Positions 1,867 through 42,718 of a DNA stretch of 60,778 nucleotides are shown one piece after another. Origin of the DNA: Armatimonadota bacterium (lineage in GTDB: Bacteria > Armatimonadota > JAAZEB01). The notes beneath the pieces are model-generated. The model saw nothing but the letters and a program-made list of their open reading frames with translations, made no database searches and was not told the origin of the DNA. The stretch covers positions 1 to 60,778 of the forward strand of contig JAAZEB010000080.1 of the NCBI GenBank assembly GCA_012512505.1, in the 5' to 3' direction. How positions within the stretch are numbered: position 1 is the stretch's first letter; the number at the start of each line of letters is the position of its first letter. Position numbers and translations under genes: made by a program.

Positions 1867-2910
1867 ATGGCGGAGGCGACCCTGAGCGAACGGATCAAAG
1901 TGGCGGCGCGTGCTCTGGGGTTCGAGTTGGTGGGCATCGCGCCGGCCGAGCCGGGCCCGCACGCGGCGTTCCTGGAGGAGTGGCTGGCCCGCGGTTACGC
2001 CGCCGGAATGGCCTACCTGGGCCGTGACCCGGAGAAGCGGCAAGACCCCCGGAAGGTCGTGCCGGACGCGCGCGCGGTGGTCGTCTGCGGCATGAGCTAC
2101 TACCCCGGCCCGGAGCCGGAGGGCACCGGGGCGGTGGGCCGGGGAATCGTGGCGCGCTACGCCCGCGGCAACGACTACCACGACGTGCTCGGCGAGAAGC
2201 TGCAGGCGCTGTTGGCATTTATCCAGGCCCAGGCGCCGGCGGGGGCAGCCGGCCGCGCCTACGTGGACACCGGGCCAGTGCTGGAGCGAGAGGTGGGCGC
2301 GCTGGCGGGCCTGGGGCAGTTTGGCAAGAACACCACCCTCATCAGCCGCGCCCTCGGCTCCTACTTCTTCCTGGGCGTGGTGATCACCACCCTCGCCCTG
2401 GAGCCCGACCCGCCGGCGTCCTGGAACCTCTGCGGGAGCTGCACCCGCTGTCTCGATGCCTGCCCCACCGGCGCCCTGCGCGCTCCCTATGAGCTGGACG
2501 CGCGCCTCTGCATCTCTTATCTGACTATCGAGCACCGGGGAAGCATCCCCCGGGAGCTGCGCGCCGCGATCGGGGATCGCGTTTTCGGCTGCGACATCTG
2601 CCAGGAGGTGTGCCCCTGGAACCGCCGCGCCCAACCGTGTCGCGAGCCAGCGTTGGCCCCCCGGCCGGAGGCGGAAGCGCCACTGCTGGCCGAACTGCTG
2701 GCACTGAGCCAGGAGGAGTTCTCCCGGCGCTTCCGGGGCAGCGCCGTGAAGCGGGCGAAGTGCCAGGGGCTGCGCCGCAACGCCGCCGTGGCGCTGGGCA
2801 ACACGCGCGACCCCGCCTACGCCCCGGTCCTCACCCGCGCGCTGGCCGACCCCGATCCGGTGATCCGCGAGCACGCTAGCTGGGCGCTGGAGCAGGTGGG
2901 CGGGGAGTAG
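1867..2910 (+). CDS. queG: tRNA epoxyqueuosine(34) reductase (B12- and 4Fe-4S-dependent)
   Basis: N-terminus MAEATLSERIKVAARALGFELVGIA. Two ferredoxin motifs are present: CGSCTRCLDACP and CDICQEVCPWN. It also has CISYLTIEHRG and a C-terminal HEAT-like DPDPVIREHASWAL. Confidence 0.9.
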   Translation: MAEATLSERIKVAARALGFELVGIAPAEPGPHAAFLEEWLARGYAAGMAYLGRDPEKRQDPRKVVPDARAVVVCGMSYYPGPEPEGTGAVGRGIVARYARGNDYHDVLGEKLQALLAFIQAQAPAGAAGRAYVDTGPVLEREVGALAGLGQFGKNTTLISRALGSYFFLGVVITTLALEPDPPASWNLCGSCTRCLDACPTGALRAPYELDARLCISYLTIEHRGSIPRELRAAIGDRVFGCDICQEVCPWNRRAQPCREPALAPRPEAEAPLLAELLALSQEEFSRRFRGSAVKRAKCQGLRRNAAVALGNTRDPAYAPVLTRALADPDPVIREHASWALEQVGGE

Positions 2911-3022: not shown

Positions 3023-4003
3023 ATGCCAATGGGAATGAGCAGTCGCGAAGTGGTGATCCGCACGGTGAAGTTCGCGGGGCCAGACCGGCTGCCGCGCGAC
3101 TTCCCGGCGCCGTTCGGCTCCGACTTCGCCTGGGTGGGGCCAGACCCCTCGCCAGACGCCCGGCCGCGCAGTGGGCGCGACGAATGGGGCGCGCTGTGGC
3201 GCAACATTGGCGCCTCCGGCCTGGGCGAGGTGGCCGAGTTCCCCCTGACCGACTGGGCCGACTTCGCCACGCTGTCGATCCCGGACGTGCGCGACTCGCG
3301 GCGGTGGGGTGCCCTGGCCGGCGTGCGCGAGCGCGCGGGCAACCTGTTCCTGATGGGCGGCGGCTTCTCCCTCTACGAGCGCGTCCACTTCATCCGTGGC
3401 CTGGAGAACACCTGGGCCGACCTCTACGAGCACCCCGACGAACTGCGCCGCCTGCTGGAGGTGCTCGTCGACATGAACCTGGTCGCCATCGAGAAGTACG
3501 CCAGTGCGGGCGTGGATGGCCTCATGTTCTGCGACGACTGGGGCCTGCAGAACCGTCTGATGATCTCTCCCGAGAAGTGGCGCGAGTTCTGGAAACCGTG
3601 CTACGCCCGCGTTTGGGGCGCCGCCCACGAAGCCGGGATGCTCACCTTCCTCCATAGCTGCGGCTACATCACCGACATCCTGGACGACCTGATCGAGGCC
3701 GGCCTCGACGTGATCCAGATGGACCAGCAAGAGAACATGGGCCTGGAGCGCCTCTCCGAGGGCTGGGCCGGCCGCATCACCTTCTATTGCCCGGTGGACA
3801 TCCAGAAGACGATGTGCTATGGGTCACTCGACGAGATCCGGGCCTACTGCCGGAAGCTGGTGCGGTTCCTCGGCCGGCCAGAGGGGGGCTTCATCCCGAA
3901 GTGGTATGGCGACCCGGTCGGGGCCGGCCACCGTCAGGAAGCGATCAACGCCATGTGCGAGGAGTTCCTGCGGATCAGCGAGGAGCTCTATGGGCACAAG
4001 TGA
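3023..4003 (+). CDS. Uroporphyrinogen-decarboxylase (URO-D) family protein, MtaA/CmuA-like methyltransferase paralog
   Basis: ATG at 3023 follows GGAGGAAGGAAG. The peptide FCDDWGLQNRLMISPEKWREFWKPCY...FLHSCGYITDILDDLIEAGLDVIQMDQ matches the C-terminal barrel of URO-D family methyltransferases. Confidence 0.8.
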   Translation: MPMGMSSREVVIRTVKFAGPDRLPRDFPAPFGSDFAWVGPDPSPDARPRSGRDEWGALWRNIGASGLGEVAEFPLTDWADFATLSIPDVRDSRRWGALAGVRERAGNLFLMGGGFSLYERVHFIRGLENTWADLYEHPDELRRLLEVLVDMNLVAIEKYASAGVDGLMFCDDWGLQNRLMISPEKWREFWKPCYARVWGAAHEAGMLTFLHSCGYITDILDDLIEAGLDVIQMDQQENMGLERLSEGWAGRITFYCPVDIQKTMCYGSLDEIRAYCRKLVRFLGRPEGGFIPKWYGDPVGAGHRQEAINAMCEEFLRISEELYGHK

Positions 4004-4318
4004 TCCTCGTGGAAGGAGACGGATATAGCGAAGCTGGGTAAGGGCTGGCTTGTTTGGGCAGTGGTCGTGGCGACGTCAGCCTTGACGACGCTGCTATGCA
4101 ACATGATAATGCGAGCAACCCCCGCTACCGCACAGGCGCCGCCAACGGTGCCTGTCGCGGCGGCGATCAGCGCAGATGGCCACTTCGCCGTCATCGTCAA
4201 GCCGAATTCCTAAATGGTGCTCCGCCCATCATCAGATAACCCGCGAGACAGGGAGAATATGGCCTGGTGAGAACGCGGGGCGCCGACATGCGCGCGTTAC
4301 TGGCGGCGGAGGCACCCT

Positions 4319-5464
4319 TCAGTAGGCGCCGCATTCCTGCAGCGTTTCCCACATCGCGAGGAGGTTCTCGGGGGGCACGTCCGCCTGGATGTTGTGGACG
4401 GTGGTGAAGACGAAGCCGCCGCCGGGCGCCAGGTCGTCAATGCGCCGCCGCACCTCGTCGCGCACCTCCTGGGGCGTGCCGCGCGGCAGCACCCGCTGCG
4501 TGTCTACGCCTCCGCCCCAGAAGACCAGGTCGCGCCCGAACTCGCGCTTGAGGACGCGCGTGTCCATCCCCGCGGCGCTCACCTGCACCGGGTTCAGGAT
4601 ATCGACACCCACCTCGATCAGATCGGGCAGAATCTCGACGACGCTGCCGCACGTGTGGTAGAAGGTGTAGACGGGCGCCTGCTTCTTGATGTGGGAGAAG
4701 AGCGCCGCCTGCCGGGGCTTCACCATCTCCCGGTAGGCCTTCGGGTTCATCAGGAGGCACTGCTGCATCCCCAGGTCGTCGCCCTCCATGGCAATGTCGA
4801 CCAGGTCGCCCACCTCGGCGAGCGCGCGCTCCCAATAGCGCAGCTTCGTCTCCAGGACGAGATCGAGCACCGCCTCAGCCATCGGGCGGTCGGCGGCCAG
4901 GTCGGTGAAGAAGGTCTCGAAGCCGCGCAGCCACAGGCTCATCTCGGTGAGGCCAGCGCAGATGCCCCCCAGGACCACGGCGCACCCGCTGGCGCGGGCG
5001 GCCTCGGCGCGCTCCCTCAGCCCCACAAAACGCGCCGGGTCCTGCGGGTCGGGCCAGGGGAAGCGGCGGACCTCCTCGGGCGCGGCGGCATCGGCTAGAG
5101 GATGGCCGCACAAGTCGTAGTAGCGACGCTCCTCCTTCGGCATGCGCCGCGGCAAGCCCCACTGGTCGGTGTAGTAGTGGTAGCGCGCGTCCTCCTCGAT
5201 GCGGAGCTCCCAGCCCGAGGGGTTCCCGCTGGCAATGCCGCGCGTATCCACCCGGAGCGCCTGCAGCGCATCCTCGTCAACGACGGCAAGCTGCTGGGTG
5301 AGGTCGCTGATGGCCGGTTCGCGGGGCGGCAGGCCGAGCGCCAAGCGCAGGCGAGCGTAGGCGATGCGGTGGATGCCCGTCACCTTGGTGGAGCCAAGGT
5401 CGAACGGCACCCGGTCGGGTTCCCGGTGGCTCAACGCCGTCAGCACGCGGTCACGAGGGGTCAT
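4319..5464 (-). CDS. URO-D family protein, MtaA/CmuA-like methyltransferase paralog
   Basis: N-terminus MTPRDRVLTALSHREPDRVPFD, preceded by AGGAGGTGA. It contains YHTCGSVVEILPDLIEVGVDILNPVQ. It is the last gene of the minus-strand corrinoid cluster. Confidence 0.85.
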   Translation of the reverse strand: MTPRDRVLTALSHREPDRVPFDLGSTKVTGIHRIAYARLRLALGLPPREPAISDLTQQLAVVDEDALQALRVDTRGIASGNPSGWELRIEEDARYHYYTDQWGLPRRMPKEERRYYDLCGHPLADAAAPEEVRRFPWPDPQDPARFVGLRERAEAARASGCAVVLGGICAGLTEMSLWLRGFETFFTDLAADRPMAEAVLDLVLETKLRYWERALAEVGDLVDIAMEGDDLGMQQCLLMNPKAYREMVKPRQAALFSHIKKQAPVYTFYHTCGSVVEILPDLIEVGVDILNPVQVSAAGMDTRVLKREFGRDLVFWGGGVDTQRVLPRGTPQEVRDEVRRRIDDLAPGGGFVFTTVHNIQADVPPENLLAMWETLQECGAY

Positions 5465-5520
5465 CGGCTCACCTCCTGGGGCGTGAAGCGCAACGCGTGA
5501 TGCGCAAGACTGACGCCCGC

Positions 5521-5551
5521 TCTTCTCACGCGTTACGCGTTACTTCTCACG
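5521..5551. repeat. Nested short direct repeats: TTCTCACG x2 flanking ACGCGTT x2
   Basis: The sequence reads tcttctcacgcgttacgcgttacttctcacg. The heptamer acgcgtt occurs at 5528-5534 and 5535-5541. The octamer ttctcacg occurs at 5523-5530 and 5544-5551. The element spans the stop codon of the Fe-S gene and the leader of the next URO-D gene. Confidence 0.8.
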
Positions 5552-6431
5552 TCTCCTCGATGCCCATCCGCAGCAGGAGCCGGGAGTGGACGTGGGCGCG
5601 CAGGGCATCCAGGCCGAGGCGCTGCACCAGTGCCCCCAGGCGCTCGCGGGGCTGCCCGCGGTCGCGCAGGAAGGAGAGGATGCGCAGGGCAATGCCCGCG
5701 GCCTCGCGCTCCGGGAGGAAGCGGGCGAGGACCGTGCCGAACTGCGGCCGGCGCCCGCCGTGTCCCCCGACGTAGACGGTGTAACCAACGCGCCCGGGGC
5801 GCAGCGCGTGCAACTCACAGGCGGCGATGCAGGCGCCGCAGTTGTCGCAGCGCAGTGGATCGCGGCGCGGCAGCCCACGGCGCATCGTCAGCGCGCGCTC
5901 GTCGCAGATCCCGGCGCACCGGCCGCAGCCGTTGCAGGCCGCGCGGTCGAGCACCGGGTCCACGGTACCCACGAAGCCGATGTCAGCCAACTGCGGCGCC
6001 GTACACCCGCTGGAGCAGGCGGCGATCGCGATGCGCACCGGCGAGGGATACTCCTCGCCGCCCAGCAAGAGGTCCAGCATGCTGGCCAGGCCGCGGGCAT
6101 CCACAAAGCAATGGGCGCACTTCTCCTGGCCGGTGCAGACCACCACGTTTTGCGGGTGAGCGCCTGGGCTGCCGGTAGGCAGCCCGGCGGCGGTCAGCGT
6201 CTGCTGAAGGACGGGAAGGTCCCCAAAGCTCACCCCTGGGATCTCAACGCCCTGGCGAGCGGCAAGTTGCACGTAGCCCAGTCCATACTCCCGGGCAACT
6301 TCAGATAGGGTTAGAAGCTGGTCTGCGGAAAGCATCCCCGTTGGCGCGCGCAGCCTCACGGCGAAACGTTCTCGCCCCTGCTCGGCTGCGCCCTGCGGAA
6401 GCCCCACCGCCCGCTCCGGGGGCGCACTCAT
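5547..6431 (-). CDS. Small sulfite/nitrite-reductase-like hemoprotein with an inserted 2x[4Fe-4S] ferredoxin domain
   Basis: I chose the internal ATG at 6431 (MSAPPER), which is preceded by GAGGATGAGGG and lies 7 nt after the upstream stop. The siroheme/cluster motif C-x5-C (CTGQEKC) plus C-x3-C (CSSGC) is present. There are two CxxCxxCxxxC motifs (CNGCGRCAGIC and CDNCGACIAAC). The N-terminal FAVRLRAPTGMLSADQL resembles the NIR_SIR ferredoxin-like half-domain. Confidence 0.75.
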   Translation of the reverse strand: MSAPPERAVGLPQGAAEQGRERFAVRLRAPTGMLSADQLLTLSEVAREYGLGYVQLAARQGVEIPGVSFGDLPVLQQTLTAAGLPTGSPGAHPQNVVVCTGQEKCAHCFVDARGLASMLDLLLGGEEYPSPVRIAIAACSSGCTAPQLADIGFVGTVDPVLDRAACNGCGRCAGICDERALTMRRGLPRRDPLRCDNCGACIAACELHALRPGRVGYTVYVGGHGGRRPQFGTVLARFLPEREAAGIALRILSFLRDRGQPRERLGALVQRLGLDALRAHVHSRLLLRMGIEET

Positions 6432-6438
6432 ACCACCC

Positions 6439-7494
6439 TCATCCTCTCGCTCCGAACTCCTCCACGGCCTGGAAGAACGCCAGAATGTTCTCCCAAGGCA
6501 CATCCGGTTCCAACACGTGCGTCGGGGCAATCACAATGCCCGGCCAGAAGAGGTCTATCATCTCTCGCACGGTCTGGCGCACGTCCGCCGGGGTGCCAAA
6601 CGGCATCACCGTCTGCGTGCCGATGGTGCCCCAGAAAGCCAATCGGTCGCCATACCGCTCCTTCAACCAGCGCAGGTCGAGACACTCCGGCTGCACCGGG
6701 TTCAGCACGGTGACTCCCACCTCGATCAGGTCGTCGATGATGTCGACGATCTTGCCGTCGCTGTGGTACCACACCGGGATCTCCGGGCGCACGGCGCGCG
6801 CGGCGGCGATGACCCGGGCCAGCCGGGGCTTCAGGAAGCGGCGCCACTCGGCCGGCTTCATCATCAGCCGGTCCTGCATCCCCACGTCGTCGCCAACGCG
6901 CAGCATGTCGACGCCCGCCTCGGCGAACCGGCGAGCGCGGAAGGCGTTGTCTTCCGTGATACGATCCAGGACGCGCTCCACCAGGGCCGGGTTCAGCACC
7001 ATGTCCTCGAAGAACTTCTCGAAGCCGAGGATCTGCCACGCCAACTCGAAGATGTGTCCGGCAAAGCCATCCACGAAGAGACCGCGCGCGTGCAGGTCGG
7101 CCACCTGCTGTTCGAGGTGCGCGTGCCGGTAAGAGGGCCGCACGTCCGGCCATGGGTAGGCGTCCACCTCCTGCACCGAGGTGGCGTGGCGCAGCGGGAA
7201 GACGTAGCGGCTGAAGTGGTAGAAGTCACCGGGGATGTTGCCAGTGCCGTACTCGCCGATCGCGATCGGGCGGTCGCTCTGCAGGTCGGCGTAGTAAGCC
7301 TGGTAGTCCGGGTTCTCCTTGAGCGGGCCGAAGCCAACGCCTCGCGTCTCCATGCCGAAGTACTCGGCGGGATCCGAGGCGCCGGTCTCCTGGCGAAAAC
7401 GCTCGTACACCGCCGGCGTGAAGCCTGCCTCCTTCGGCACGCGATCCGGTGGCTGCCGGTTCACTGCCGCCAGCACTCGTTCCCTCGGGGTCAT
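6439..7494 (-). CDS. URO-D family protein, MtaA/CmuA-like methyltransferase paralog
   Basis: N-terminus MTPRERVLAAVNRQPPDRVP, preceded by GAGGAGG. It contains WYHSDGKIVDIIDDLIEVGVTVLNPVQPE. It starts 41 nt downstream of fhs. Confidence 0.85.
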   Translation of the reverse strand: MTPRERVLAAVNRQPPDRVPKEAGFTPAVYERFRQETGASDPAEYFGMETRGVGFGPLKENPDYQAYYADLQSDRPIAIGEYGTGNIPGDFYHFSRYVFPLRHATSVQEVDAYPWPDVRPSYRHAHLEQQVADLHARGLFVDGFAGHIFELAWQILGFEKFFEDMVLNPALVERVLDRITEDNAFRARRFAEAGVDMLRVGDDVGMQDRLMMKPAEWRRFLKPRLARVIAAARAVRPEIPVWYHSDGKIVDIIDDLIEVGVTVLNPVQPECLDLRWLKERYGDRLAFWGTIGTQTVMPFGTPADVRQTVREMIDLFWPGIVIAPTHVLEPDVPWENILAFFQAVEEFGARG

Positions 7495-7535
7495 CGCGGT
7501 TCCTCCTCAACACAAACGCACCGGTGGTGGCTCGC

Positions 7536-9203
7536 TCAGAACAGCCCTTCGATGTGCCAGTGGTCGTCCAGGTTGATGCGGGCGGCGGCCGGCTCCTTCG
7601 GCAGACCGGGCATGGTCAGGATGTTGCCCGCGTAGGCGACGAGGTAGCCGGCGCCGGCAAACACCTTCAGGTCACGGATCGTCACCTGGAACCCGGTGGG
7701 CCGACCGCGCAAGGTGGACTGATCGGAGAGCGAGTTCTGGGTTTTCGCCATGCAGATGGCCAGGTTGGCGTAGCCGTTCGCCTCGATCTCCCGCAGGCGC
7801 TTCTCAGCCTCGGCGGTGTAGACGACCCCCTCGGCACCGTACATGCGGGTGGCGATCATGGCGATCTTCTCTTTCACCGGCTGGTCGAGGTCGTAGAGCG
7901 GGCGGTAGTGGGTGGGCTGGTCCGACAGCTCCACCACCATCTCGGCCAGTTCGCGCCCGCCCTCACCGCCGCGCGCCCAGATGTCGGCCACGGCAAGCGG
8001 CACGCCACGGCGCTCCATCGCCGTAGCTACGGCGGCGATCTCTTCAGGGGAGTCGGTGGTGAAGCGGTTGAGCGCCACGCCCACCGGCAGCCCGAACGCC
8101 TGCATGTTCTCGACGTGCTTCTCCAGGTTCGGGATCCCCGCCTCCACGGCCGCCACGTCTGGCTCGGCGAGGGTGTTCAGCCCCTTGCCCGCCTGGTACT
8201 TCAGGGCGCGGATCGTGCCGCCGACCACCACCGCGTTCGGCGTCAGCCCGGCATGCCGGCACTTGATGTCCAGGAACTTCTCGGCGCCCAGGTCGGAGCC
8301 GAAGCCGGCCTCGGTGACCAGGAACTCGGCCAGTTGCAGCCCAAGGCGGGTGGCCTGAACGCTGCTCACTCCGGGGCCGACGTTGCCGAACGGCCCGGCA
8401 TGCACGAAGGCGGGCACCCCCTCAATCGTCTGCACCAGGTTCGGCTTGAACGCCTCACGCAGGGTTGCCATCATCGCGCCCGGTGCCTCAAGCGCCTGAG
8501 CAGTGACCGGCCGGCCGTCAGTGGTGTAGCCGACCACGATGCGCCCCAGGCGCACGCGCAGGTCCGGCAGGTCGCTCGCCAGGGCGAGGATCGCCATCAC
8601 CTCGGAGGCGGCGGTGATCTCGAACCCACCCTCGCGCGGCACACCGTTGCCCGGCCCGCCAAGGCCGAGGACGATGCTGCGCAGCGCGCGGTCGCACAGG
8701 TCCAACACCCGGGGGAAGACCATGCGGCGGGGATCGAGGCCAAGGGGGTTGCCCTGCTGCAGGTGGTTATCGGCGAGGGCGGCGAGGAGGTTGTGCGCCG
8801 TCGTCACGGCGTGGATGTCGCCGGTGAAGTGGAGGTTGATGTCCTCCATCGGCAGCACCTGCGAGTAGCCGCCGCCGGTGGCGCCGCCCTTGACGCCGAA
8901 GACGGGGCCCAGCGAGGGCTCGCGCAGCGCCACGCAGGCCCGCCGGCCCAGGCGGGCCAGGCCCTGCGCCAGGCCAATCGAGAGCGTGGTCTTCCCCTCG
9001 CCGGCGGGCGTGGGGGTCATCGCGGTCATCAGGATCAGCTTGCCGGCAGGGGCGCCCGCGCGCCGGGCGAGCGCCTCCGGCTTCACCTTCGCCTTGTAGT
9101 CGCCGTACTGTTCCAGTTCGTCCGGCCGCAAGCCCAGGCGCGAGGCCACTTCCGTGATCGGGAGCAGCGTCGCGGCCCGGGCGATGGAGAGATCGTCCGC
9201 CAT
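7536..9203 (-). CDS. fhs: Formate--tetrahydrofolate ligase
   Basis: The 555-aa protein has a PTPAGEGKTT P-loop, EPSLGPVFGVKGGATGGGY and FVHAGPFGN, all hallmark FTHFS motifs. Confidence 0.95.
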   Translation of the reverse strand: MADDLSIARAATLLPITEVASRLGLRPDELEQYGDYKAKVKPEALARRAGAPAGKLILMTAMTPTPAGEGKTTLSIGLAQGLARLGRRACVALREPSLGPVFGVKGGATGGGYSQVLPMEDINLHFTGDIHAVTTAHNLLAALADNHLQQGNPLGLDPRRMVFPRVLDLCDRALRSIVLGLGGPGNGVPREGGFEITAASEVMAILALASDLPDLRVRLGRIVVGYTTDGRPVTAQALEAPGAMMATLREAFKPNLVQTIEGVPAFVHAGPFGNVGPGVSSVQATRLGLQLAEFLVTEAGFGSDLGAEKFLDIKCRHAGLTPNAVVVGGTIRALKYQAGKGLNTLAEPDVAAVEAGIPNLEKHVENMQAFGLPVGVALNRFTTDSPEEIAAVATAMERRGVPLAVADIWARGGEGGRELAEMVVELSDQPTHYRPLYDLDQPVKEKIAMIATRMYGAEGVVYTAEAEKRLREIEANGYANLAICMAKTQNSLSDQSTLRGRPTGFQVTIRDLKVFAGAGYLVAYAGNILTMPGLPKEPAAARINLDDHWHIEGLF

Positions 9204-9219
9204 CGTCCTACTCCTACCG

Positions 9220-10029
9220 CTATTCCTGCCGCTGCTCCAGCTTCCCCTGGCGGGCCATGGCCAGATAGTTGGCGCAATACTCGTCGCGGCCCAGCAGCGC
9301 CTCCCCGGCGTAGAGGAGAGCCATCAGGGCCGGGTCGGTGGGGTCGGCGATCACGCAATCGAGGCCGGCGCCGAGGCAGAGCACCAGGAATGCCTGGTTG
9401 AGCAGCTTGCGGACCGGCAGCCCGTAGGAGACGTTGCTCAAGCCGCAGGTCGTGTGGACTCCGGGATAGGTGGCCCGCACGTAGCGGATCGTCTCCAGCA
9501 CTTGCTTCCCGGCTTCGCCGTTGGTGCTCACCGGGAAAACGAGCGGGTCGAGGTAGATGTCGTCCAGCGGCACGCCCGCCGCGGTCAGGTTGGTCACCAG
9601 GAAGTCGGCCGCCTGGGTGCGCGCCTCCAGCGTCTGCGGAATGCCGCGATCATCCAGGCAGAGGGCGACCACTTTGGCGCGGTACTGCTTTATCAGCGGC
9701 AGGATGCGGGCGAACTTCTCCCGCTCGGCGGTGATGGAGTTGATGAACGGTTGGCCCTGATGCACGGCCAGCGCGGCTTCCATCGCGCCGGGGTTCGGGC
9801 TGTCGATGGCGCAGGGGAGACCGGTAGCCTCCTGGCACGTCTGCACCAACCAGGCCAACGTCTCCGGCTCCGCCTCCACTCCCACGACGGCCCCGTTGCA
9901 GTCCAGGAAGTGGGCACCCGCCGCCGCCTGGGAGAGTGCCTCCTGGCGGATGAAGTCGGTGTCGTGAGCCTTAACCGCCGCTCCGATACTCTTCCGGGTG
10001 CTGTTGATCCGCTCTCCGATGATTAGCAT
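9220..10029 (-). CDS. Pterin-binding methyltetrahydrofolate:corrinoid methyltransferase (MT II; AcsE/MtvA/MtrH-like)
   Basis: It starts MLIIGERINSTRKSIGAAVKAHD, contains SITAEREKF and DPLVFPVSTN, and ends 16 nt before fhs. The fold is dihydropteroate-synthase-like. Confidence 0.85.
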   Translation of the reverse strand: MLIIGERINSTRKSIGAAVKAHDTDFIRQEALSQAAAGAHFLDCNGAVVGVEAEPETLAWLVQTCQEATGLPCAIDSPNPGAMEAALAVHQGQPFINSITAEREKFARILPLIKQYRAKVVALCLDDRGIPQTLEARTQAADFLVTNLTAAGVPLDDIYLDPLVFPVSTNGEAGKQVLETIRYVRATYPGVHTTCGLSNVSYGLPVRKLLNQAFLVLCLGAGLDCVIADPTDPALMALLYAGEALLGRDEYCANYLAMARQGKLEQRQE

Positions 10030-10143
10030 CGCGATCCCCCATGCCGTCGGTGGTTGGCGGCGCTTCAGGCGGCTCCGGGGCTAGCCGCCACGCTGCCAAC
10101 CGGACGGAACAGGTCTTTGCCAGGCAAGCCTGGCCGCAGTGAC

Positions 10144-10155
10144 CACACACACACA
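10144..10155. repeat. (CA)6 dinucleotide microsatellite
   Basis: cacacacacaca is read directly. It is intergenic, between the corrinoid-protein and MT II genes. Confidence 0.9.
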
Positions 10156-10161
10156 ACGAAT

Positions 10162-10216
10162 GGGAGAGCGGGAGAGGCAGAGGCTGGGGAGCATCTCCCC
10201 TTCCTCTCGCTCTCCC
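10162..10216 (-). terminator. Long GC-rich stem-loop: possible intra-operon terminator, attenuator or processing site
   Basis: gggagagcgggagagg (10162-10177) pairs with cctctcgctctccc (10203-10216). An inner stem ggggag-cat-ctcccc lies at 10186-10200. On the minus strand it follows the corrinoid-protein stop and is followed by a T/G-rich tract (ATTCGTTGTGTGTGTG). Confidence 0.4.
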
Positions 10217-10295
10217 ACCCTCCCATTCCGCGAGACGGCCGTGGGTCGTCTGCCAACCACCCCGCCGGGCGGCGGTGGCAGCAGACCCACGAATC

Positions 10296-10940
10296 TCAGG
10301 CAGTGATCCCGAGCAGCGCCTTGGCCGTATCGACAGCGCTCGCCGCGTCCGGGGCGTAGCCATCGGCGCCGATCTCGTCGGCGTAGGCCTGCGTGAGGGG
10401 GGCGCCGCCCACGATCACCTTGACCTGGTCGCGGTAGCCGGCCTCCTGGAGCGCGGCGATCGTCTCCTTCATCGCCGGCATGGTGGTGGTGAGCAGGGCC
10501 GACAGGCCGATCGCGCCCACGCCGCGCTCGCGCACCGCTTCCACGAAGGTGGCCGGGCTGACGTCAGTGCCCAGGTCGATCACCTCAAAGCCAGCGCCCT
10601 CGAGCATCATGCCGACGAGGTTCTTGCCGATGTCATGCAGGTCGCCCTGGACGGTGCCGATAGCAACCTTGCCGACCGGCTGGATGCCGGAGTCGGCGAT
10701 GAGCGGGCGCAGCTTCTCCATCGACTGCTTCATCGCGCGGGCGGCAATGAGCACCTCGGGGATGTAGAACTCATTGCACTTGAACTTCTGGCCCACGACC
10801 TGCATACCCGCGACCAGACCCTTGTTGATGATGTCGGCGACAGGTACTCCGGTGGCCAGTGCCTCGTCGGTCGTCTCTTTGGCCTTCTGCGCATTGCCTT
10901 CAATGACAAACTGCGCCAGGCTCTCCAGCAGGGACGGCAT
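10296..10940 (-). CDS. Cobalamin-binding corrinoid protein (MtaC/MtbC/MtvC-like)
   Basis: It has an N-terminal B12-binding_2 cap helix bundle. The DxHxxG motif is present in GDLHDIGKNLV. A Rossmann-like SALLTTTM...VIVGGAP follows. Confidence 0.9.
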   Translation of the reverse strand: MPSLLESLAQFVIEGNAQKAKETTDEALATGVPVADIINKGLVAGMQVVGQKFKCNEFYIPEVLIAARAMKQSMEKLRPLIADSGIQPVGKVAIGTVQGDLHDIGKNLVGMMLEGAGFEVIDLGTDVSPATFVEAVRERGVGAIGLSALLTTTMPAMKETIAALQEAGYRDQVKVIVGGAPLTQAYADEIGADGYAPDAASAVDTAKALLGITA

Positions 10941-11361
10941 AGTGTCTCCTCCTCCGATGAACAGAGCTTGGGCGCTCCGCCCGCCGTCGCGCGGCGGTGG
11001 TGCCGCTCTCCGTTATTCGGCCTCGCCCTCACTCTCTGCAGGTGCTATCCGGTTCGAGCCTACAAAGGCGGTTGCGCCGAAGCCAGCTCCCCGCAGGCAC
11101 CCTCAACCTCTGCATCTTTCGATTCCTGCCTGGCCGCTTCCTTTCCTTCCCCCGCCGGGGGAACTGTTCGGGCGCAAGGCAGGCGAGGCCCCCGGGGAAC
11201 AGAGAACGGGCCTTGGTTCCTGGCACTCACCGAACCGGAGCCGCTTCCCCCGGTTATTCGCCCAGGGAACTGCTATTCCTGGTGGGGCTTCCGAAGAGAG
11301 ATCCTCGATAAGCCGGTCGGGGTTTGCCGCCGCTTTCGGGGCCTTTGCGGCGGCGCCGCGA

Positions 11362-11673
11362 TCAGCGCGGGCGCAGCAGCACGTCGCGGAAGCAGAGCCG
11401 ATTGGGGTCCGCCTCGGGCCCGATCGCCTCTCTCGCCCAAAACTCTAGCACGTCCCGCAGTTGGGGTTCGTCTGCCAGACGGCCGCTGGCGAAGTGGCGC
11501 AGCGCCTCGTCGAAGCAGGCCAACCGGTAGAGCAAGCGTGCCAGGCATTCGGCCTGCCGCTGCTCATCCTGCGGACACTCCTGCAGGCGCTCTCCTTCCG
11601 GCGTCGGCTTCACCATCCGGCCGGAACATGCCCGACAAAGGCTCTCCCCTACCACTTCAGCCAAGGCTGCCAT
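11362..11673 (-). CDS. Hypothetical small Cys-containing protein
   Basis: An ATG at 11673 opens a frame of about 103 aa with genome-typical GC3 bias. It contains CRAC...C...C, which may bind metal. I recognise no family. Confidence 0.4.
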   Translation of the reverse strand: MAALAEVVGESLCRACSGRMVKPTPEGERLQECPQDEQRQAECLARLLYRLACFDEALRHFASGRLADEPQLRDVLEFWAREAIGPEADPNRLCFRDVLLRPR

Positions 11674-11960
11674 CGCGTCTTTTCCCTTCACACTCGTCGT
11701 TGGGGCCGGATCTCACCGAGTTCCGCGCCCATTGTAACGCGCTGCGAATCGCCAGTCCATCAGGAGATCGGCGGCTTTTTGGATCAGGGGTCTCCCTGAT
11801 CGAGGCAGGGCAGAACCCTTGACTGGCGCCTGCTCCTCGCGCGCCCCCGGGGCACCGATCCGCCCTCCTACGCCAGGTACGCGGTCGGATCGCCGGCGTC
11901 CCGCCGGCCCCCATAGGAGGCGTCCGACGCCGAGGGAGGTGTTCCTCCTCCAGGAGATGG

Positions 11961-12117
11961 CCGGAGTGCCCGAGCCATCGGGCTTCTGGGTCTGGGAAGC
12001 CGCATCGCTGCGGCGCTCCGTTGCTCTCCCAGGCAACTGACCGGAGTGCTCGAGCCATCGGGCCTCTGCCGGGCGGCCGCGTCGCCACGGCGCTCCGCTG
12101 CTCTCCCAGGCGACGGA
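11961..12117. repeat. Tandem duplication of a unit of about 80 nt
   Basis: Unit 1 (11961-12040) begins ccggagtgcccgagccatcgggcttctgg and ends cggcgctccgttgctctcccaggcaact. Unit 2 (12041-12117) begins ccggagtgctcgagccatcgggcctctgc and ends cggcgctccgctgctctcccaggcgacg. The two ends are conserved and the middle has diverged. Confidence 0.85.
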
Positions 12118-12162
12118 GCCCCTTTTCCATCCGCCCAGCGGGGACGCCTCCTACAAGGTGAA

Positions 12163-12891
12163 TCAGGGGAGGATGCGCACTGGGATGCCGACCGGCAGCA
12201 GCGCCAGCAGTTCCTCCATGTCGGCGTTGCGGAGGGCCACGCAGCCGGCGGTCCAGTCGCGGATACGCACGTACTTGCGGGCACCCCGGCGCACCACCTC
12301 ACCGATGCCCCCGCCGTGGATGAAGATGTTGCCGCCCAGGCGGGTGTGCTGGGGAGGCTTGGCCTGCCGAGCGCAGGCGGAGGCAATGCGCTGCTGCATG
12401 GTTGGGCTGATCAGCCCTTGCCGCAGGCCGCGCGCGGCGTCAGTCGGGTTCGGGTAGGAGACGCCGAGGGAGAGGTAGAACCGCGACTGCCAGTTCTTCC
12501 CCCACAGGTAGTAGGTCCCCTCGGGCGTCCGCCCGTCACCCCGCCGCTGCTTGGGGCCCTGGGGGTCGCGCCCCAGGGCGATGAAGTAGCCCTTCACCGG
12601 GATCCCGTCGCAGGTGACCACCATGCGGCGGCTGCTCTTCTTGACGGTGATGCCGAGGGCGCCCCGGCACGCTTCCCCCTGGCGCGCCCGGTGCGCGCGG
12701 AGGCACTCCGCCAGGGAGAGGCCCCAGGTGTTCCAGAAGCCGGAGACCAGCAAGCCCGGTGGCTTCGGCGGGGCATTCACTGGTGGTGGCGAGGGCGGCT
12801 CCGGCGCCAGCGGCGGTGACGGCCGCCGGCAACCACCCAGAGCCAGCAAGCCAAGCAGCAGCAGCAGGATGGGTCTCAAGTTCCAGCGCAT
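12163..12891 (-). CDS. L,D-transpeptidase (YkuD-fold) lipoprotein
   Basis: It has a signal peptide with lipobox LLALGGC, a proline-rich linker, and the catalytic region IFIHGGG...DWTAGCVALRN (His...Cys motif of L,D-transpeptidases). Confidence 0.8.
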   Translation of the reverse strand: MRWNLRPILLLLLGLLALGGCRRPSPPLAPEPPSPPPVNAPPKPPGLLVSGFWNTWGLSLAECLRAHRARQGEACRGALGITVKKSSRRMVVTCDGIPVKGYFIALGRDPQGPKQRRGDGRTPEGTYYLWGKNWQSRFYLSLGVSYPNPTDAARGLRQGLISPTMQQRIASACARQAKPPQHTRLGGNIFIHGGGIGEVVRRGARKYVRIRDWTAGCVALRNADMEELLALLPVGIPVRILP

Positions 12892-14630: not shown

Positions 14631-16598
14631 TCAGATGAAGATCTTGTAGGTGGCCACCCCGAGCAGCGGCCCGAGGATGGCCCAGAGTGAGCCGACCGTG
14701 TAATCTCCCAGGACCAGCCCCAGGAAGAACGGGATCGCCCCCACGTGCGCCCGGCGGCCGCCAAAGCGGATCAGCGAGACTTTGAACAGCCACGCCAGGA
14801 AGAAGGCGAACCAGAAGTAGTCCATGGCAAAGCTCACGGCCAGGGCGTAGCCGGCCGGGTGAAATGGCCAGCCGGCGAACGCCGTGCGCAGCGTGCGCAG
14901 GCCAAAGACCACCAAGGCGCCGCCGGCGAACGCCATCAGGTTGGGCAGCTCGGTTTTCGAGCCGGTGTCGAGCCACTGTTTGAGGCGCTCGAACGACTCG
15001 GCGCCCACCCAGCTCTTGAACCCAAGGCACTTGGCCTGTGCCCCCGCCGCGTAAGGCACCTGCAGGTTCGCCCAGTAAGCGGCCAGGATGGAGACCACGC
15101 TGGCCAGGATCGTCACGGCAAGGAGGCGTTGGAGGTGGATCCGACCGCCTTCGGCCATCTTGAACGCCTCCAACTGGTTGGGCATCGGGTGCGAGCGGTA
15201 GCAGCGGTGCAGCCAGTACATCCCGGAGATGACGGTCAGGTTCGCCGGGCCAAGGGCGGCGGAGCCGAAGAGGAGCACCATGATCTGCTGGGGGTTAACG
15301 AAGTAGATCTCGTGCGGGCTGCCCAACTCGGCGCGCACCCGCGTCATCGCCAGCGACAAGAGGAAGTAGATGCCAAAGAAGAGGATCACGTAGCCCGGCT
15401 GCATCCCGGCGGCCATGGCGAAGCCCATCAGGAAGACCGCCCCCACCAGCAGCGTGATCAGCGCCCAACGGTAGCGACGCGCCTCCTCGGGGTCCTCTTT
15501 CCAGGCCGAGCCGGCCAGTGCCGCCTCGGCAATCCGCCGCCAGTGGGGGCGTGTCGCCATCACCAGGGTGATCGCCAGCGCCAGCCACGCGCCGGACGAC
15601 ATCTCCCGGAAGTAGGGAAACCCCTTGGCGCGCGCCGCGTCCCACCCGGTCACCGCCCCCAGCACCTCCCACAGGCTGCGCAAGATGAAGAAGAACCAGC
15701 AAGAGAAGAGCAGGTCGGAGGGCATGAAGTAGCCCAGGCCGATGGCGAACGGGTAGGCCGCGGCCATCTTCCAGCCCATGGCGTTCCAGGGCCGGTTCCA
15801 GAACCAGGGGCTCAGGTCTTTCTGCTTGAACCACCCCAGGTAGGGGAAAGTGGGAAACAAGACGTGCAGGCCGTTGATGGTGCCGATGGCGAAGGCCACG
15901 GCGAAGCCGGTCCACATCAGGCGGTTGCGGAAGAAGCCGGTGCTCGCCTCGCCGGTCATCGCCAGGGGAAGCTGCACCAGGGGGAAGACCAACTTCTCGT
16001 GCTCGGTCCACAGCCGCCGCAGCAGCACGTTGATGGCGAGCATCATTGCCACCAGAACGAGCAGGAAAAGGCCCCACCAGGCCAGCGGCACCACCCAGGG
16101 GCGCCAGTTCCCATTCTGCCACGGCGACGACCAGCCGTTGTAGAACCCCTCCAGGGCCTCCTTATCCATCACAAAGAGCCACCGCGGCAGGTACTGGAAG
16201 AAGAACTCCTCGTAGCGGTTCTCCGGGGTGGCCATCCAGCGAGGGTGCCCAATGGCGCCAAACAAGTTCTGGACCGTGTCGTGCGCGGCGAAGACGCCGG
16301 AGATCACGACCATGATGTAGATGACGAGTAGCTCGCCCTGGTCCAGGCCGGCCCGGCCCAACAGCCTGCGCCACGCCATGTTGCCCAGCACCAGAACGAA
16401 GAGGAGGAAAAGAGGGGTAACCATCAGGGGGAGGCAAGTGCCGTCGAGGCTGTACCAGCGCACCTCCACCACGGTGATCCAGAAGGCGTTGATCGGGATG
16501 ATCAACAATCCGATCAGCACGGCGCGCAGGGTAACTCCGCCCGAACGGGAAGCCTGTGTCGGACGGCTCTCTGTGGAGGGCACTGGCTGTGCAACCAT
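14631..16598 (-). CDS. Large polytopic membrane protein of unknown function (possibly the DUF6785/DUF6784 family)
   Basis: The 655-aa protein has many hydrophobic segments rich in W, F and Y. Its ATG overlaps the murJ stop (TAATG). The family name is recalled from memory and not verified. Confidence 0.75.
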   Translation of the reverse strand: MVAQPVPSTESRPTQASRSGGVTLRAVLIGLLIIPINAFWITVVEVRWYSLDGTCLPLMVTPLFLLFVLVLGNMAWRRLLGRAGLDQGELLVIYIMVVISGVFAAHDTVQNLFGAIGHPRWMATPENRYEEFFFQYLPRWLFVMDKEALEGFYNGWSSPWQNGNWRPWVVPLAWWGLFLLVLVAMMLAINVLLRRLWTEHEKLVFPLVQLPLAMTGEASTGFFRNRLMWTGFAVAFAIGTINGLHVLFPTFPYLGWFKQKDLSPWFWNRPWNAMGWKMAAAYPFAIGLGYFMPSDLLFSCWFFFILRSLWEVLGAVTGWDAARAKGFPYFREMSSGAWLALAITLVMATRPHWRRIAEAALAGSAWKEDPEEARRYRWALITLLVGAVFLMGFAMAAGMQPGYVILFFGIYFLLSLAMTRVRAELGSPHEIYFVNPQQIMVLLFGSAALGPANLTVISGMYWLHRCYRSHPMPNQLEAFKMAEGGRIHLQRLLAVTILASVVSILAAYWANLQVPYAAGAQAKCLGFKSWVGAESFERLKQWLDTGSKTELPNLMAFAGGALVVFGLRTLRTAFAGWPFHPAGYALAVSFAMDYFWFAFFLAWLFKVSLIRFGGRRAHVGAIPFFLGLVLGDYTVGSLWAILGPLLGVATYKIFI

Positions 16599-19926: not shown

Positions 19927-20024
19927 TGGCGGAGGCGTGTGAGAATCGAACTCACCCAGGACAGCTCTCGCTGCCCCGCACAGGGTTTGAAGCCCAGGCC
20001 CTTCACCAGAAGAGACCCGCCCCC
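19927..20024 (-). tRNA. selC: tRNA-Sec (anticodon UCA)
   Basis: The minus-strand 98-mer is GGGGGCGGGTCTCTTCTGGTGAAGGGCCTGGGCTTCAAACCCTGTGCGGGGCAGCGAGAGCTGTCCTGGGTGAGTTCGATTCTCACACGCCTCCGCCA. Acceptor GGGGGCG pairs with CGCCTCC (one G-U). The 6-bp D stem CTCTTC/GAAGGG with the 4-nt loop TGGT is the tRNA-Sec hallmark. The anticodon loop is CTTCAAA. The 7-bp variable arm is GGGCAGC-GAGA-GCTGTCC. The T arm is GTGAG-TTCGATT-CTCAC, followed by discriminator G and CCA. The weak point is the anticodon stem, which is GGG/CCC plus C-G with an internal U-U mismatch. Confidence 0.75.
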
Positions 20025-26418: not shown

Positions 26419-26430
26419 GAGGCCCCCCTA

Positions 26431-26612: not shown

Positions 26613-26695
26613 GCCCAGAGCATGCTCGCGGGGCGTAAGCATCATGCCGACCTGGCGTCTCCCTCAAGCCATGGTGCCACACCGACCGCGACCCA

Positions 26696-28173: not shown

Positions 28174-28237
28174 CTGCGGCTTCGCCTGTCATGGCCGGCC
28201 GGCATCAGCACCACGCAGAGGCTGGCGCTCCCGGGGG

Positions 28238-29887: not shown

Positions 29888-30010
29888 CAGCCGGTACTCC
29901 CTTCCCACCAGCAACGTTCGACCGGGGGGCACGGCTCCCCTCCCCGTTCCCTCGCCGCCGACAAAGCCACCGGCAGGCGCGGATAGAAAAGCACCCCGAT
30001 GGGTAGTGGA

Positions 30011-41665: not shown

Positions 41666-42718
41666 ATGACCTCAAAGGAACGGGTGTGGACGCTGCTTCA
41701 GGGAGAGCTGCCGGATCGCTGCCCCTACTTCGACCTGGTGCGCAACGACGCGGTGATCACGCATTTCGCCGGTGAAGCGCTGACGCTGGAGAACGCCCCC
41801 GAGGTAGTCTACCGTGCCGTTTCCCGCGCAGTGGACGCCACCCGGCCGGCGGTGCGGCTTCCGGATCGCGAGGGCGTGGAAGTGCTTCCCGACGGCCGGC
41901 AGATGCGCCGCTTCCGTTGGACCACCTGGATCGACAAGGTGCGCTTCGCGGACACGGAGGCGTTCGCGGCCTGGCTGCGGCAGGCGCTGGAAGCGCCGGT
42001 GGAATGGTCCGCCGCCGATGAGCGGAACGCGCAAGACACCCTGCGCACTTATGCCGATCTGGAAGCGCGCCTGGACGATGTCTTCCTGGTGTGGGGCAGC
42101 GTGTGCGGCGACCCGCTGACCGGCGTCTGCCACACGGTGGGCCTGGAGCAGTTCTCTTACTACCTGGCGGACTGCCCTGATCTGATCGCCGCCTACATCG
42201 AGCACGGGTTTGCCCGCGCGGAGACGCTGGCCCGGCACTTCCCCTTCCCGGCGCACGTGCGCGCCGTCTTCCTCGGCAGCGACATCGCCCTCAACACCGG
42301 GCCGATGTTCCGCCCGGCTTATCTGCGCCAGCACTACTTCCCCGGCATCCACCGCATCGTGGAGGCCTACCACGCCCGCGGTATCAAGGTGCTCTACCAT
42401 TCCGACGGCAACCTGATGCCGATTCTGGATGATCTGGCCGCCTGTGGCATCGATGCCCTGAACCCAATCGAAGTGATCTGCGGCATGGACATCCGGGAGA
42501 TCCACCGGCGCTACCCGCGCCTAGTGCTCGTCGGCGGCATCGACGTGAGTCAGTTGCTCCCGTTCGGCACCCCGCAGCAGGTGCGTGACGCCGTGGTGCG
42601 GGCAATCGAGGATGCCGAGGGGCGGATCATGGTCGGCTCTTCCACCGAACTACAGTACACCGTGCCGCTGGCCAACGCCCTGGCGATGATCGAGGCCGCC
42701 CACGCCTACCGCTACTGA
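41666..42718 (+). CDS. URO-D family protein, MtaA/CmuA-like methyltransferase paralog (fourth in the window)
   Basis: It opens MTSKERVWTLLQGELPDRCPYFD and contains YHSDGNLMPILDDLAACGIDALNPIEV. Confidence 0.85.
   Translation: MTSKERVWTLLQGELPDRCPYFDLVRNDAVITHFAGEALTLENAPEVVYRAVSRAVDATRPAVRLPDREGVEVLPDGRQMRRFRWTTWIDKVRFADTEAFAAWLRQALEAPVEWSAADERNAQDTLRTYADLEARLDDVFLVWGSVCGDPLTGVCHTVGLEQFSYYLADCPDLIAAYIEHGFARAETLARHFPFPAHVRAVFLGSDIALNTGPMFRPAYLRQHYFPGIHRIVEAYHARGIKVLYHSDGNLMPILDDLAACGIDALNPIEVICGMDIREIHRRYPRLVLVGGIDVSQLLPFGTPQQVRDAVVRAIEDAEGRIMVGSSTELQYTVPLANALAMIEAAHAYRY

Follow-up and report, generated by a model that had tools for sequence, protein, structure and literature searches.

Corrinoid-dependent methyltransferase systems are found mainly in acetogens, methanogens and specialists of organohalide or one-carbon metabolism, and their known substrates are aromatic ethers, methylamines, methanol, methyl halides and methylated thiols. 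The closest described relatives of the system considered here are the corrinoid O-demethylases (Moorella MtvABC; OdmABCD and Vdm of Acetobacterium and Desulfitobacterium; archaeal MtoABCD). Their operons encode a first methyltransferase (MT I) of the uroporphyrinogen decarboxylase (URO-D) family, a small His-on corrinoid protein capped by a B12-binding_2 domain, and a second, pterin-binding methyltransferase (MT II) that methylates tetrahydrofolate (THF). A further point of reference is provided by the mlp proteins, which have His-Cys-Cys metal sites and a Ram/RACE activase but no THF methyltransferase, and which are linked to methyl-S or methyl-Se compounds, mostly in Firmicutes (PMC10418091).

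Here we analyse a row of genes on the minus strand (11673-4319) of an Armatimonadota contig of 60,778 nucleotides (JAAZEB010000080.1, assembly GCA_012512505.1), the whole of which we call the window. The row encodes a complete MT I / corrinoid protein / MT II set together with formate-tetrahydrofolate ligase (Fhs) and a sulfite-reductase-like (SiR-like) siroheme protein. We find that the SiR-like gene belongs to a core kept in five Armatimonadota lineages, that its product appears to have a remodelled anion site, and that the URO-D subfamilies of the module are tied in other phyla to corrinoid proteins and sugar genes. Comparison with the described systems leads us to propose a corrinoid-dependent demethylation pathway, probably for methylated carbohydrates.

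Results

A corrinoid methyltransferase module with a core conserved in five lineages

Genes in the window, which is about 69% G+C, were called by codon-position GC and checked with Pfam and NCBIfam. Codon-position GC and Pfam support seven genes, namely the six of the row that had been noted earlier and a convergent URO-D-family gene (3023-4003, plus strand); an extra small open reading frame (ORF) leads the row. In the order of transcription the row comprises the small ORF, the corrinoid protein, MT II, Fhs, a URO-D-family protein of 351 residues (U351), the SiR-like protein and a second URO-D-family protein of 381 residues (U381), with intervening gaps of 421, 266, 16, 41, 7 and 82 nt and no terminator-like site seen inside the row. 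An earlier note, made from the sequence alone, had described the six-gene row and its domains; every one of these calls was reproduced by codon-position GC, Pfam and NCBIfam, and its five gaps (266, 16, 41, 7 and 82 nt) are exact. The interval given there starts at 3023 with the convergent URO-D-family gene, and its end coordinate, 11673, is the ATG of the small ORF, which its gene list did not contain. We conclude that the row is one operon-like module.

The components of a three-part methyl-transfer system are readily recognised. The corrinoid (B12-binding) methyl-carrier protein (214 aa, 10296..10940, minus strand) matches PF02310 at 103.5 bits and PF02607 at 74.4 bits, which bears out its earlier assignment as B12-binding, and it has a complete His-on motif, DLHDIG-x41-SAL-x28-GG, from residue 100; its top NCBIfam matches are of the MtgC/MtbC type, every one of them under the equivalog cut-off. 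MT II (269 aa, 9220..10029, minus strand) is a pterin-binding TIM barrel (PF00809, 83 bits) that scores 348.8 bits against the NCBIfam model for methyl-THF:corrinoid/Fe-S protein methyltransferase (PRK07535, cut-off 259 bits). Fhs (555 aa, 7536..9203, minus strand) covers the full PF01268 model over residues 3-555, at 802.9 bits. The candidates for MT I are U351 (6439..7494, minus strand; PF01208, 101 bits) and U381 (4319..5464, minus strand; PF01208, 78.8 bits). Between them lies the gene for the SiR-like siroheme/[4Fe-4S] protein (294 aa, 5547..6431, minus strand), in which NIR_SIR (PF01077) and NIR_SIR_ferr (PF03460) domains are accompanied by an inserted domain for two [4Fe-4S] clusters. 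The earlier note's reading of the row as an MT I / corrinoid protein / MT II system holds; all three components are present and operonic both here and in four other lineages.

Five lineages, all Armatimonadota, were compared: the window, L007, L099, L100 and L008/L092-094. The loci of the relatives are those contigs that carry SiR-like homologs 53-60% identical to the window protein, and all of them show the same arrangement. L007 and L099 each have YkuD, the small ORF, the corrinoid protein, MT II, the SiR-like protein and U381; L100 has the corrinoid protein, MT II, a U351-type protein, the SiR-like protein and a U381-type protein; L008/L092-094 has a DtxR-type regulator, the corrinoid protein, MT II, Fhs, the SiR-like protein and U381. 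A core of corrinoid protein, MT II, SiR-like protein and U381 is thus present in the same order in five of five lineages, and the gene order that had been noted in the window is conserved in the four others. U381 follows the SiR-like gene in every lineage, and the SiR-like gene is more tightly coupled to it than to any other gene, the two overlapping by 4 nt in one lineage (L008/L092-094). Because the contig recurs in several metagenomes and the core order recurs in four other lineages, the arrangement is not due to chance. Identical proteins are found on contigs from several metagenomes and in the NCBI metagenome-assembled genome (MAG) GCA_040364295.1, and close homologs carry an Armatimonadota annotation.

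The remaining genes are more variable. Fhs is present in two of five lineages (the window and L008/L092-094) and absent from L007, L099 and L100, so that the transcriptional link to Fhs emphasised earlier is operonic in the window but optional across the group. U351 likewise occurs in two of five (the window and L100), the L100 ortholog being 82% identical and in the same position. A shared backbone is made up of genes for a GFO-type oxidoreductase, MurJ, an ECF sigma factor, a DtxR-type regulator and Metallophos. In L008 the module lies between the DtxR-type regulator and the Metallophos gene, whereas in the window the DtxR-type gene (about 21051-21722, plus strand) adjoins Metallophos (21845-22666, minus strand) and the module is about 9 kb away, beyond MurJ. 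Because its place differs relative to this shared backbone, the module relocates as a unit. The DtxR-type metal regulator of the window, which has a FeoA domain, is divergent from the ECF sigma factor gene (20194-20820, minus strand); in L008 (3955-5870) and L092 this regulator stands immediately upstream of the module.

Two further URO-D paralogs lie outside the row, where the earlier note had placed them. U326 (326 aa, 3023..4003, plus strand; PF01208, 65.2 bits) starts 112 nt after QueG (1867-2910, plus strand) and converges on the U381 gene across 315 nt. It is found beside the module solely in contigs of the same organism (L001-L006). U350 is encoded at 41666..42718 (plus strand; PF01208, 52.4 bits). 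In the other lineages neither U326 nor U350 was seen close to the module. U326 is peripheral and stands outside the conserved module. The four paralogs of the proposed paralog expansion are therefore real, but they largely do not form one system, U351 being present in two of five lineages and U326 and U350 lying outside the module. As to its own surroundings, U350 (region 40133-42718, plus strand) lies 63 nt after a thioredoxin-reductase-like flavoprotein (Pyr_redox_2), with an anti-sigma-type HATPase_c_2 protein nearby and no corrinoid protein nearby.

No RACo/RamA (DUF4445-type) activase, MetF or FolD was found when all ORFs of the window supported by GC at third codon positions, and extra ORFs in unassigned stretches, were scanned with Pfam, in agreement with the earlier note; nor was a RACo/DUF4445-type domain found among the called genes of L007, L008, L092, L099 and L100. 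Corrinoid activases are often encoded away from the system that they serve, and therefore a missing activase in 60 kb says little. It may be encoded elsewhere in the genome.

The URO-D paralogs are distant relatives of MtaA with O-type metal sites

We judged the identity of the URO-D paralogs by model scores, motif comparison and fold search. All four score highest against MtaA/CmuA-type models, at 44-56 bits (TIGR01463 cut-off 235), while the hemE model (TIGR01464, cut-off 303) gives 21.8 bits for U351, 24.9 bits for U326 and no match for U381 or U350. In a sequence search of the PDB the sole match of U381 was MtaA (4AY7), and U351 matched the same entry (E 3e-11) with a weak HemE match as well. 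The AlphaFold model of U381 (pLDDT 93) has MtaA 4AY7 as its best fold match (E 2.7e-15), followed by HemE structures, with TM scores of about 0.63-0.70. A marginal profile similarity to CdmB (E 0.099) was also seen. The paralogs are 24-35% identical to one another, U326 being 32-35% identical to U381 and U351. HemE proteins begin with an RQAGR-type motif and MtaA-like proteins with EPDRVP; the N-termini of the paralogs have the MtaA-like EPDRVP motif and are without the RQAGR-type motif. We rejected a HemE identity on these grounds (hemE scores of at most 25 bits against 303, and a fold closest to MtaA), and by all of these sequence and model comparisons the paralogs are best described as distant MtaA-like proteins and not as HemE, which agrees with the earlier note's reading of them as methyltransferases.

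These results bear on the idea that the locus belongs to tetrapyrrole metabolism, with URO-D decarboxylases and a siroheme enzyme grouped by shared chemistry. Both Pfam families do have tetrapyrrole connections, but the hemE scores do not exceed 25 bits against a cut-off of 303, the N-terminal motif is that of MtaA and not that of HemE, and the genes sit among those for a corrinoid protein, MT II and Fhs. We consider the chance that this idea is right to be very nearly negligible.

S-methyltransferases of the URO-D superfamily have a His-Cys-Cys site, and the O-methyltransferases carry carboxylates or non-ligands in place of one Cys or of both (Kountz & Balskus, PMC10418091). Aligned to the His-x-Cys of MtaA, the metal motif reads H-T-C in U381, H-S-C in U326 and H-S-D in U351 and U350, and the position of the third MtaA zinc ligand (the Cys of PGCG) is Gly in U381. 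The His-Cys-Cys triad is present in none of the four; Gly or Asp takes the place of one Cys, as has been described for members that act as O-demethylases. By the zinc-ligand rule of PMC10418091, none of them resembles a thiol methyltransferase. We accordingly set aside an identity as MtaA/MtbA/MtsA/SCMT thiol methyltransferases, given the absent triad and the TIGR01463 scores of 44-56 bits against 235. An identity as a type 1 mlp cluster was rejected as well: the triad is absent, no Ram/RACE was seen, and a THF methyltransferase is present.

The SiR-like protein is predicted to keep its cofactors and to lack the canonical sulfite pocket

The profile of alignment A2, which holds the SiR-like clade together with its outgroups, has as its best match the C-terminal sulfite-reductase half of Fsr (7NP8, E 2e-69), and a fold search with a model of the window protein gives the same structure (E 7e-21, 30% identity). 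The Cys residues that hold the siroheme-[4Fe-4S] centre (C99, C105, C139 and C143, in CX5C and CX3C motifs) are invariant, and the Cys of both ferredoxin clusters are largely kept; the eight cluster Cys that matter are all conserved. In MjFsr, Arg355, Arg423, Lys460 and Lys462 bind sulfite and are reported to be conserved without exception in sulfite reductases (Jespersen et al., PMC10229431). We mapped these residues onto the SiR-like clade (n = 11) by ungapped alignment around both Cys motifs. Arg355 corresponds to R26 of the window protein and is conserved in the clade. Arg423 corresponds to Q94 and is lost in two of 11 members (the window protein and P0010). At the equivalent of Lys460 the window protein has P131, and each of the 11 members has P, Q or V there. 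Lys462 corresponds to R133, with K or R throughout. The full sulfite-binding signature is present in 80 of 125 other representative homologs and in every outgroup (P0012-P0018); four outgroups checked on contigs (P0013, P0014, P0017) stand beside ThiS, ThiF, TusA and PALP, that is, in sulfur-assimilation loci.

Among 1.84 billion representative sequences there is one further cluster of the clade, at 56% identity; the next is at 47% and the rest are at 40% or below, which indicates by sequence that the clade is small and isolated. We conclude that the SiR-like protein, as far as residue comparison can tell, keeps the cofactor scaffold but not the canonical sulfite pocket, and that it has been recruited into the corrinoid methyltransferase module and co-inherited with it. 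It is probably neither a passenger nor an ordinary sulfite reductase. A precedent for altered specificity exists in Group II Fsr, which has Arg-to-Gly and Arg-to-Lys changes and is a nitrite reductase. The description as a sulfite-reductase-like Fe-S protein in the earlier note thus stands for the fold and the cofactor Cys, but has to be amended to a distinct clade without the canonical sulfite-binding residues.

The sulfur context of the outgroups might also point to an anabolic role, in which the SiR-like protein would make sulfide, Fhs would bring formate into THF, the corrinoid protein and MT II would convey the methyl group of methyl-THF to a URO-D/MetE-like enzyme, and this enzyme would methylate homocysteine or sulfide, so that the row would be a split MetH-like methionine or methanethiol synthase. 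The nearest SiR-like relatives outside the clade do sit in ThiS/ThiF/TusA/PALP loci; matches to the B12 and pterin modules of MetH are seen for the corrinoid protein and MT II as well; URO-D and MetE have a common fold; the H-x-C motif of U381 is as in MetE and MtaA; and one-carbon units could come from Fhs. Against this, U381 has Gly where MtaA has its third zinc Cys, His-Cys-Cys is found in no paralog, the SiR-like clade of the module no longer has sulfite-binding residues that are kept by its relatives in sulfur assimilation, relatives of U381 and U351 occur in sugar catabolic operons (one of them with MTHFR; see below), and genes for homocysteine or cysteine synthesis are present in none of the five modules. 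Having weighed the thiol-methyltransferase or methionine-synthase idea by way of the ThiS/TusA/PALP relatives, we downgraded it on the zinc-ligand and anion-site analyses and now hold it to be quite unlikely.

The U381 and U351 subfamilies are tied to corrinoid proteins and sugar catabolism

A word-indexed search returned 7,999 matches for U381 and 5,331 for U351, the best 120 of each, all at least 56% identical to the query, being listed. Among the matches listed, homologs have no annotation beyond "uroporphyrinogen decarboxylase family protein" or hypothetical. The homologs come from Armatimonadota, Chloroflexota, Planctomycetota, Verrucomicrobiota, Latescibacterota, Spirochaetota, Bacteroidota and others. 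The U381 and U351 proteins linked to the module form subclades of their own, about 81-84% identical within and then 66-72% identical to the rest.

We surveyed the neighbourhoods of the U381 family at 80 species-level genome loci from other phyla. A corrinoid-protein gene is directly downstream of the U381-type gene in 10 of 80. In one locus of an Aggregatilineales MAG (L045, 4673-10325) the two are fused, giving a protein of 650 aa in which a U381-type URO-D is joined to a corrinoid-binding domain; ahead of this gene lie those for a CUT2 ABC ATPase, DUF4380 and a creatininase-family protein, and after it come a xylose-isomerase-like TIM barrel, MT II and an MTHFR to which a MetV-like domain is fused. 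The recurrent neighbours are of sugar type, among them CUT2 ABC transporters, NagA-like and NagB-like proteins, ROK and FGGY kinases, GFO/IDH/MocA oxidoreductases, xylose-isomerase-like TIM barrels, creatininase-family proteins, DUF4380 and LacI or GntR regulators. At least one of these families is present in 47 of 80 loci and at least two in 36 of 80, nearly all co-directional, counts that come without a random-gene control. NagA-like, NagB-like, creatininase and corrinoid-protein neighbours always lie within 3.5 kb of the U381-type gene.

For U351 there is a locus in another Armatimonadota genome (L102, GCA_026003175.1, 8163-12947), where genes for a corrinoid protein, a URO-D protein, a U351 ortholog (70% identity), a galactokinase-like kinase and a sugar-phosphate nucleotidyltransferase are co-directional with overlapping stop and start codons, the kinase gene overlapping the U351 ortholog by 4 nt. 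In a Planctomycetota locus four URO-D paralogs are arranged around a glycoside-hydrolase-like gene. Both subfamilies are tied to corrinoid proteins and carbohydrate catabolism, and it is because of these ties that we propose methylated sugars as substrates.

The earlier note had put forward methoxy-aromatics, methylamines and methylthiols among the possible donors, and the context of the subfamilies in other phyla points to methylated sugars instead. The same evidence weighs on the view that the module is an aromatic O-demethylase, methylamine or methanol system of the acetogen or methanogen type, to which the SiR-like gene is an unrelated passenger. Such a system would have an identical MT I / corrinoid protein / MT II architecture, and the best NCBIfam matches of the corrinoid protein are of the MtgC/MtbC type. 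The supposed passenger, however, is present in five of five lineages, always adjoins U381 and forms its own clade; the URO-D and corrinoid NCBIfam scores are far under the equivalog cut-offs; no MttB/MtaB-type gene is present; and the context of the subfamilies elsewhere is sugar metabolism. We therefore think it unlikely. In the literature searched and with the terms used, we found no paper that describes this module, a corrinoid-dependent demethylation of sugars, or SiR-like proteins in clusters of corrinoid methyltransferase genes. The only demethylation route for methylated sugars that our literature search brought up is an oxygen-dependent P450 (PMC6292453).

Several related observations were made along the way. 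Arrays of four to seven URO-D paralogs occur in Planctomycetota, Latescibacterota and Chloroflexota (L095/L096, 5570-11936; L084; L079); some of them surround glycoside-hydrolase-like genes, and no corrinoid protein was found within 10 kb of the arrays. In the window itself, the region 24616-35951 holds genes for plant-cell-wall degradation, whose products are acetyl-xylan-esterase-like, GH28-like, a GH78 alpha-L-rhamnosidase and an FG-GAP protein; this set fits a pectin- or rhamnogalacturonan-degrading lifestyle, and we count it in favour of the link to sugars. Several GFO/IDH/MocA oxidoreductases are encoded elsewhere in the window. A DUF6785/DUF6784 membrane protein (655 aa, 14631-16598, minus strand), encoded between MurJ and a GFO/IDH/MocA gene, may be a transporter.

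A small Cys-rich ORF and a spacer hairpin at the start of the row

The small ORF (11362..11673, minus strand) encodes 103 residues with a CxxC motif (CRAC) and four further Cys. Its GC by codon position (0.75/0.49/0.78) is coding-like, and Pfam and NCBIfam scans of it gave no match. Homologs are found in L007 (74% identity over 103 aa) and L099 (104 aa), and in all three lineages the ORF is flanked by the YkuD and corrinoid-protein genes. It is probably the first gene of the operon, and its product may assist the module as a metal-binding or regulatory protein. About 58 nt 5' of it lies a sigma-70-like promoter (TGGACT-17-TACAAT, 11731..11759, minus strand), which is a consensus match only; two such promoter-like matches occur in 9.3 kb against 0.7 expected, and this is the sole one on the strand of the row. 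The stretch that separates the YkuD gene from the small ORF contains, at 11958-12117, a unit of about 78-80 nt that is repeated once in tandem (the two copies 83-90% identical), with no further copy in the window.

The 266-nt spacer 3' of the corrinoid-protein gene (10030..10295, minus strand) is highly structured, with a long GC-rich hairpin (core about 10157-10230) and a minimum free energy of -169.8 kcal/mol (z = -8.1). A strong hairpin is present at the same position in L007 (4505-4646, z -5.5), L099 (5342-5433, z -4.5) and L100 (3414-3556, z -4.6), and the signal in L008 is not significant, so that the hairpin is found in four of five lineages with its position kept and its sequence not. 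A classical terminator was rejected, since there is no U-tail, and so was a repeated mobile element, the hairpin being single-copy in the window. It may serve transcript stabilisation or read-through attenuation, giving an excess of the corrinoid protein over the downstream products. We found no riboswitch or leader of the operon: Rfam at the gathering threshold returned only tRNA-Sec and one tRNA in the window, with permissive settings the stretch 10000-12300 matched only miRNA-precursor models, all spuriously and at the spacer hairpin, and in a five-lineage alignment 5' of the corrinoid-protein gene conservation was limited to the Shine-Dalgarno sequence.

Discussion

We propose that the module carries out catabolic corrinoid-dependent demethylation, probably of methylated carbohydrates, with methyl-THF converted to formate and ATP and with the SiR-like protein as a dedicated redox partner, and we put the probability of this reading as a whole at about one half. 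In the first step, a URO-D-type MT I would move the methyl group of a small methylated substrate to the Co(I) corrinoid protein; U381 would fill this place in every lineage, and U351 would be an extra or alternative MT I here. MT II would then hand the methyl group from the corrinoid protein to THF, after which MetF- and FolD-type enzymes encoded elsewhere would oxidise methyl-THF to 10-formyl-THF. In this lineage the Fhs of the operon would finally turn 10-formyl-THF into formate and ATP. The parts of the scheme differ in strength. Transfer of the methyl group from a donor to the corrinoid protein (by U381 or U351) and on to THF (by MT II) can be assigned with fair confidence, and a catabolic direction of flux with moderate confidence, because of the MTHFR in the Aggregatilineales locus, Fhs here and the catabolic sugar operons elsewhere. 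As to the substrate class, an O-methylated sugar or amino sugar seems most likely from the gene contexts. Apart from the module, the window has a tRNA-Sec gene (19931-20024, minus strand; 72.3 bits), which indicates that the organism makes selenoproteins; these could include a formate dehydrogenase downstream of Fhs.

Two roles can be envisaged for the SiR-like protein. The one that we rank first, because the protein sits at the place that the activating enzyme has in O-demethylase operons and is translationally coupled to MT I in one lineage, is that it would deliver low-potential electrons to re-reduce the Co(II) corrinoid protein and so replace the missing activase. Ranked second is a role as electron sink for methyl oxidation, acting on an oxyanion other than sulfite or bound differently from it.

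A rival scheme has the module break down a methylated oxyanion or organosulfur compound of S (or of Se or N), the URO-D protein demethylating it and the SiR-like protein reducing a non-sulfite or bulkier leaving group with electrons from methyl oxidation via Fhs. The tight coupling of the SiR-like gene to U381, including the 4-nt overlap, would suit it, and the less basic, remodelled anion pocket hints at another substrate, as has been argued for Group II Fsr; moreover, oxidation of a methyl group to CO2 yields six electrons by our own arithmetic, matching a six-electron siroheme reduction. The module has no sulfur-related gene, transporter or sulfatase, however, its metal sites are O-type and not S-type, the wider U381 and U351 families go with sugar genes and not with sulfur genes, and no pathway of such a kind is known. 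We judge the scheme improbable.

Several points weigh against the demethylation of methylated carbohydrates that we favour. The scheme is predicted from gene content and sequence. The module itself holds no sugar gene, and the link to sugars is made through members of the paralog subfamilies that are 45-70% identical, in other contexts and in sugar-rich phyla, with no random-gene control; since the module-linked U381 and U351 appear as separate subclades, their substrate could have changed. Aliphatic alkoxides leave poorly under attack by Co(I). Fhs is reversible, it is absent in three of five lineages, and MetF and FolD were not seen in the window. We know of no precedent for an ATPase-free siroheme protein as a corrinoid activase, and the lack of an ATPase domain in the SiR-like protein argues against a RACo-like uphill mechanism. 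Finally, the Arg and Lys changes are no proof of lost sulfite reduction, given that the substituted Group II Fsr reduces nitrite.

A stronger version would combine two claims: that the SiR-like protein is a new redox component, either an ATPase-free Co(II) reactivator or an obligatory partner of MT I, and that both subfamilies are anaerobic B12-dependent O-demethylases of methylated sugars in Armatimonadota, Chloroflexota, Planctomycetota, Verrucomicrobiota and Latescibacterota. We doubt that both will hold together. If the proposed demethylation is true, corrinoid methyl-transfer chemistry reaches common, mostly uncultured polysaccharide degraders and methylated carbohydrates, and two subfamilies labelled "uroporphyrinogen decarboxylase family protein", with several thousand matches each, gain a function. 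The SiR-like protein in addition offers a tractable example of how a siroheme enzyme is taken into a new role, and a possible new answer to the question of how Co(II) corrinoid proteins stay active without a RACo/RamA activase.

Compared with the corrinoid O-demethylases, the module is alike in its URO-D-family MT I, its operonic organisation, its small, B12-binding_2-capped His-on corrinoid protein and its pterin-binding MT II methylating THF. It differs from them in that no RACo/RamA-type ATP-dependent activating enzyme is encoded in the module or the window, that an Fsr-type siroheme/Fe-S protein stands in the place of the fourth component, that Fhs lies inside the operon, that the host is a saccharolytic member of the Armatimonadota and not an acetogen or methanogen, and that its MT I subfamilies are uncharacterised and are sugar-linked elsewhere, not aromatic-linked. 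The three structural hallmarks of MT I / corrinoid protein / MT II systems are thus present and a co-encoded activase is not. With Fsr the SiR-like protein shares a single sulfite/nitrite-reductase repeat, the CX5C...CX3C motif, the inserted 2x[4Fe-4S] domain and about 30% identity; unlike Fsr, it is without the F420H2-oxidase half, has lost the equivalent of Lys460 across the clade and that of Arg423 in the window protein and P0010, often has Arg in place of Lys462, and is encoded between corrinoid methyltransferase genes.

Like the module, the type 1 mlp clusters (PMC10418091) are found in non-methanogens and join a corrinoid protein to several URO-D paralogs of the MtaA-like kind, and their function, too, has been read from context and zinc ligands, whereas the module has no triad, has a THF methyltransferase and shows no activase. 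The chloromethane and dichloromethane systems (CmuAB with metF/folD/purU; CdmBCA; the mec cassette) likewise pass a methyl group to THF and have linked genes for C1-THF oxidation, but the window has no CmuA-type fusion, has Fhs instead of PurU, FolD and MetF, and adds the SiR-like component. The general logic of the module is textbook; the remodelled, conserved siroheme partner and the sugar link of two large URO-D subfamilies are new.

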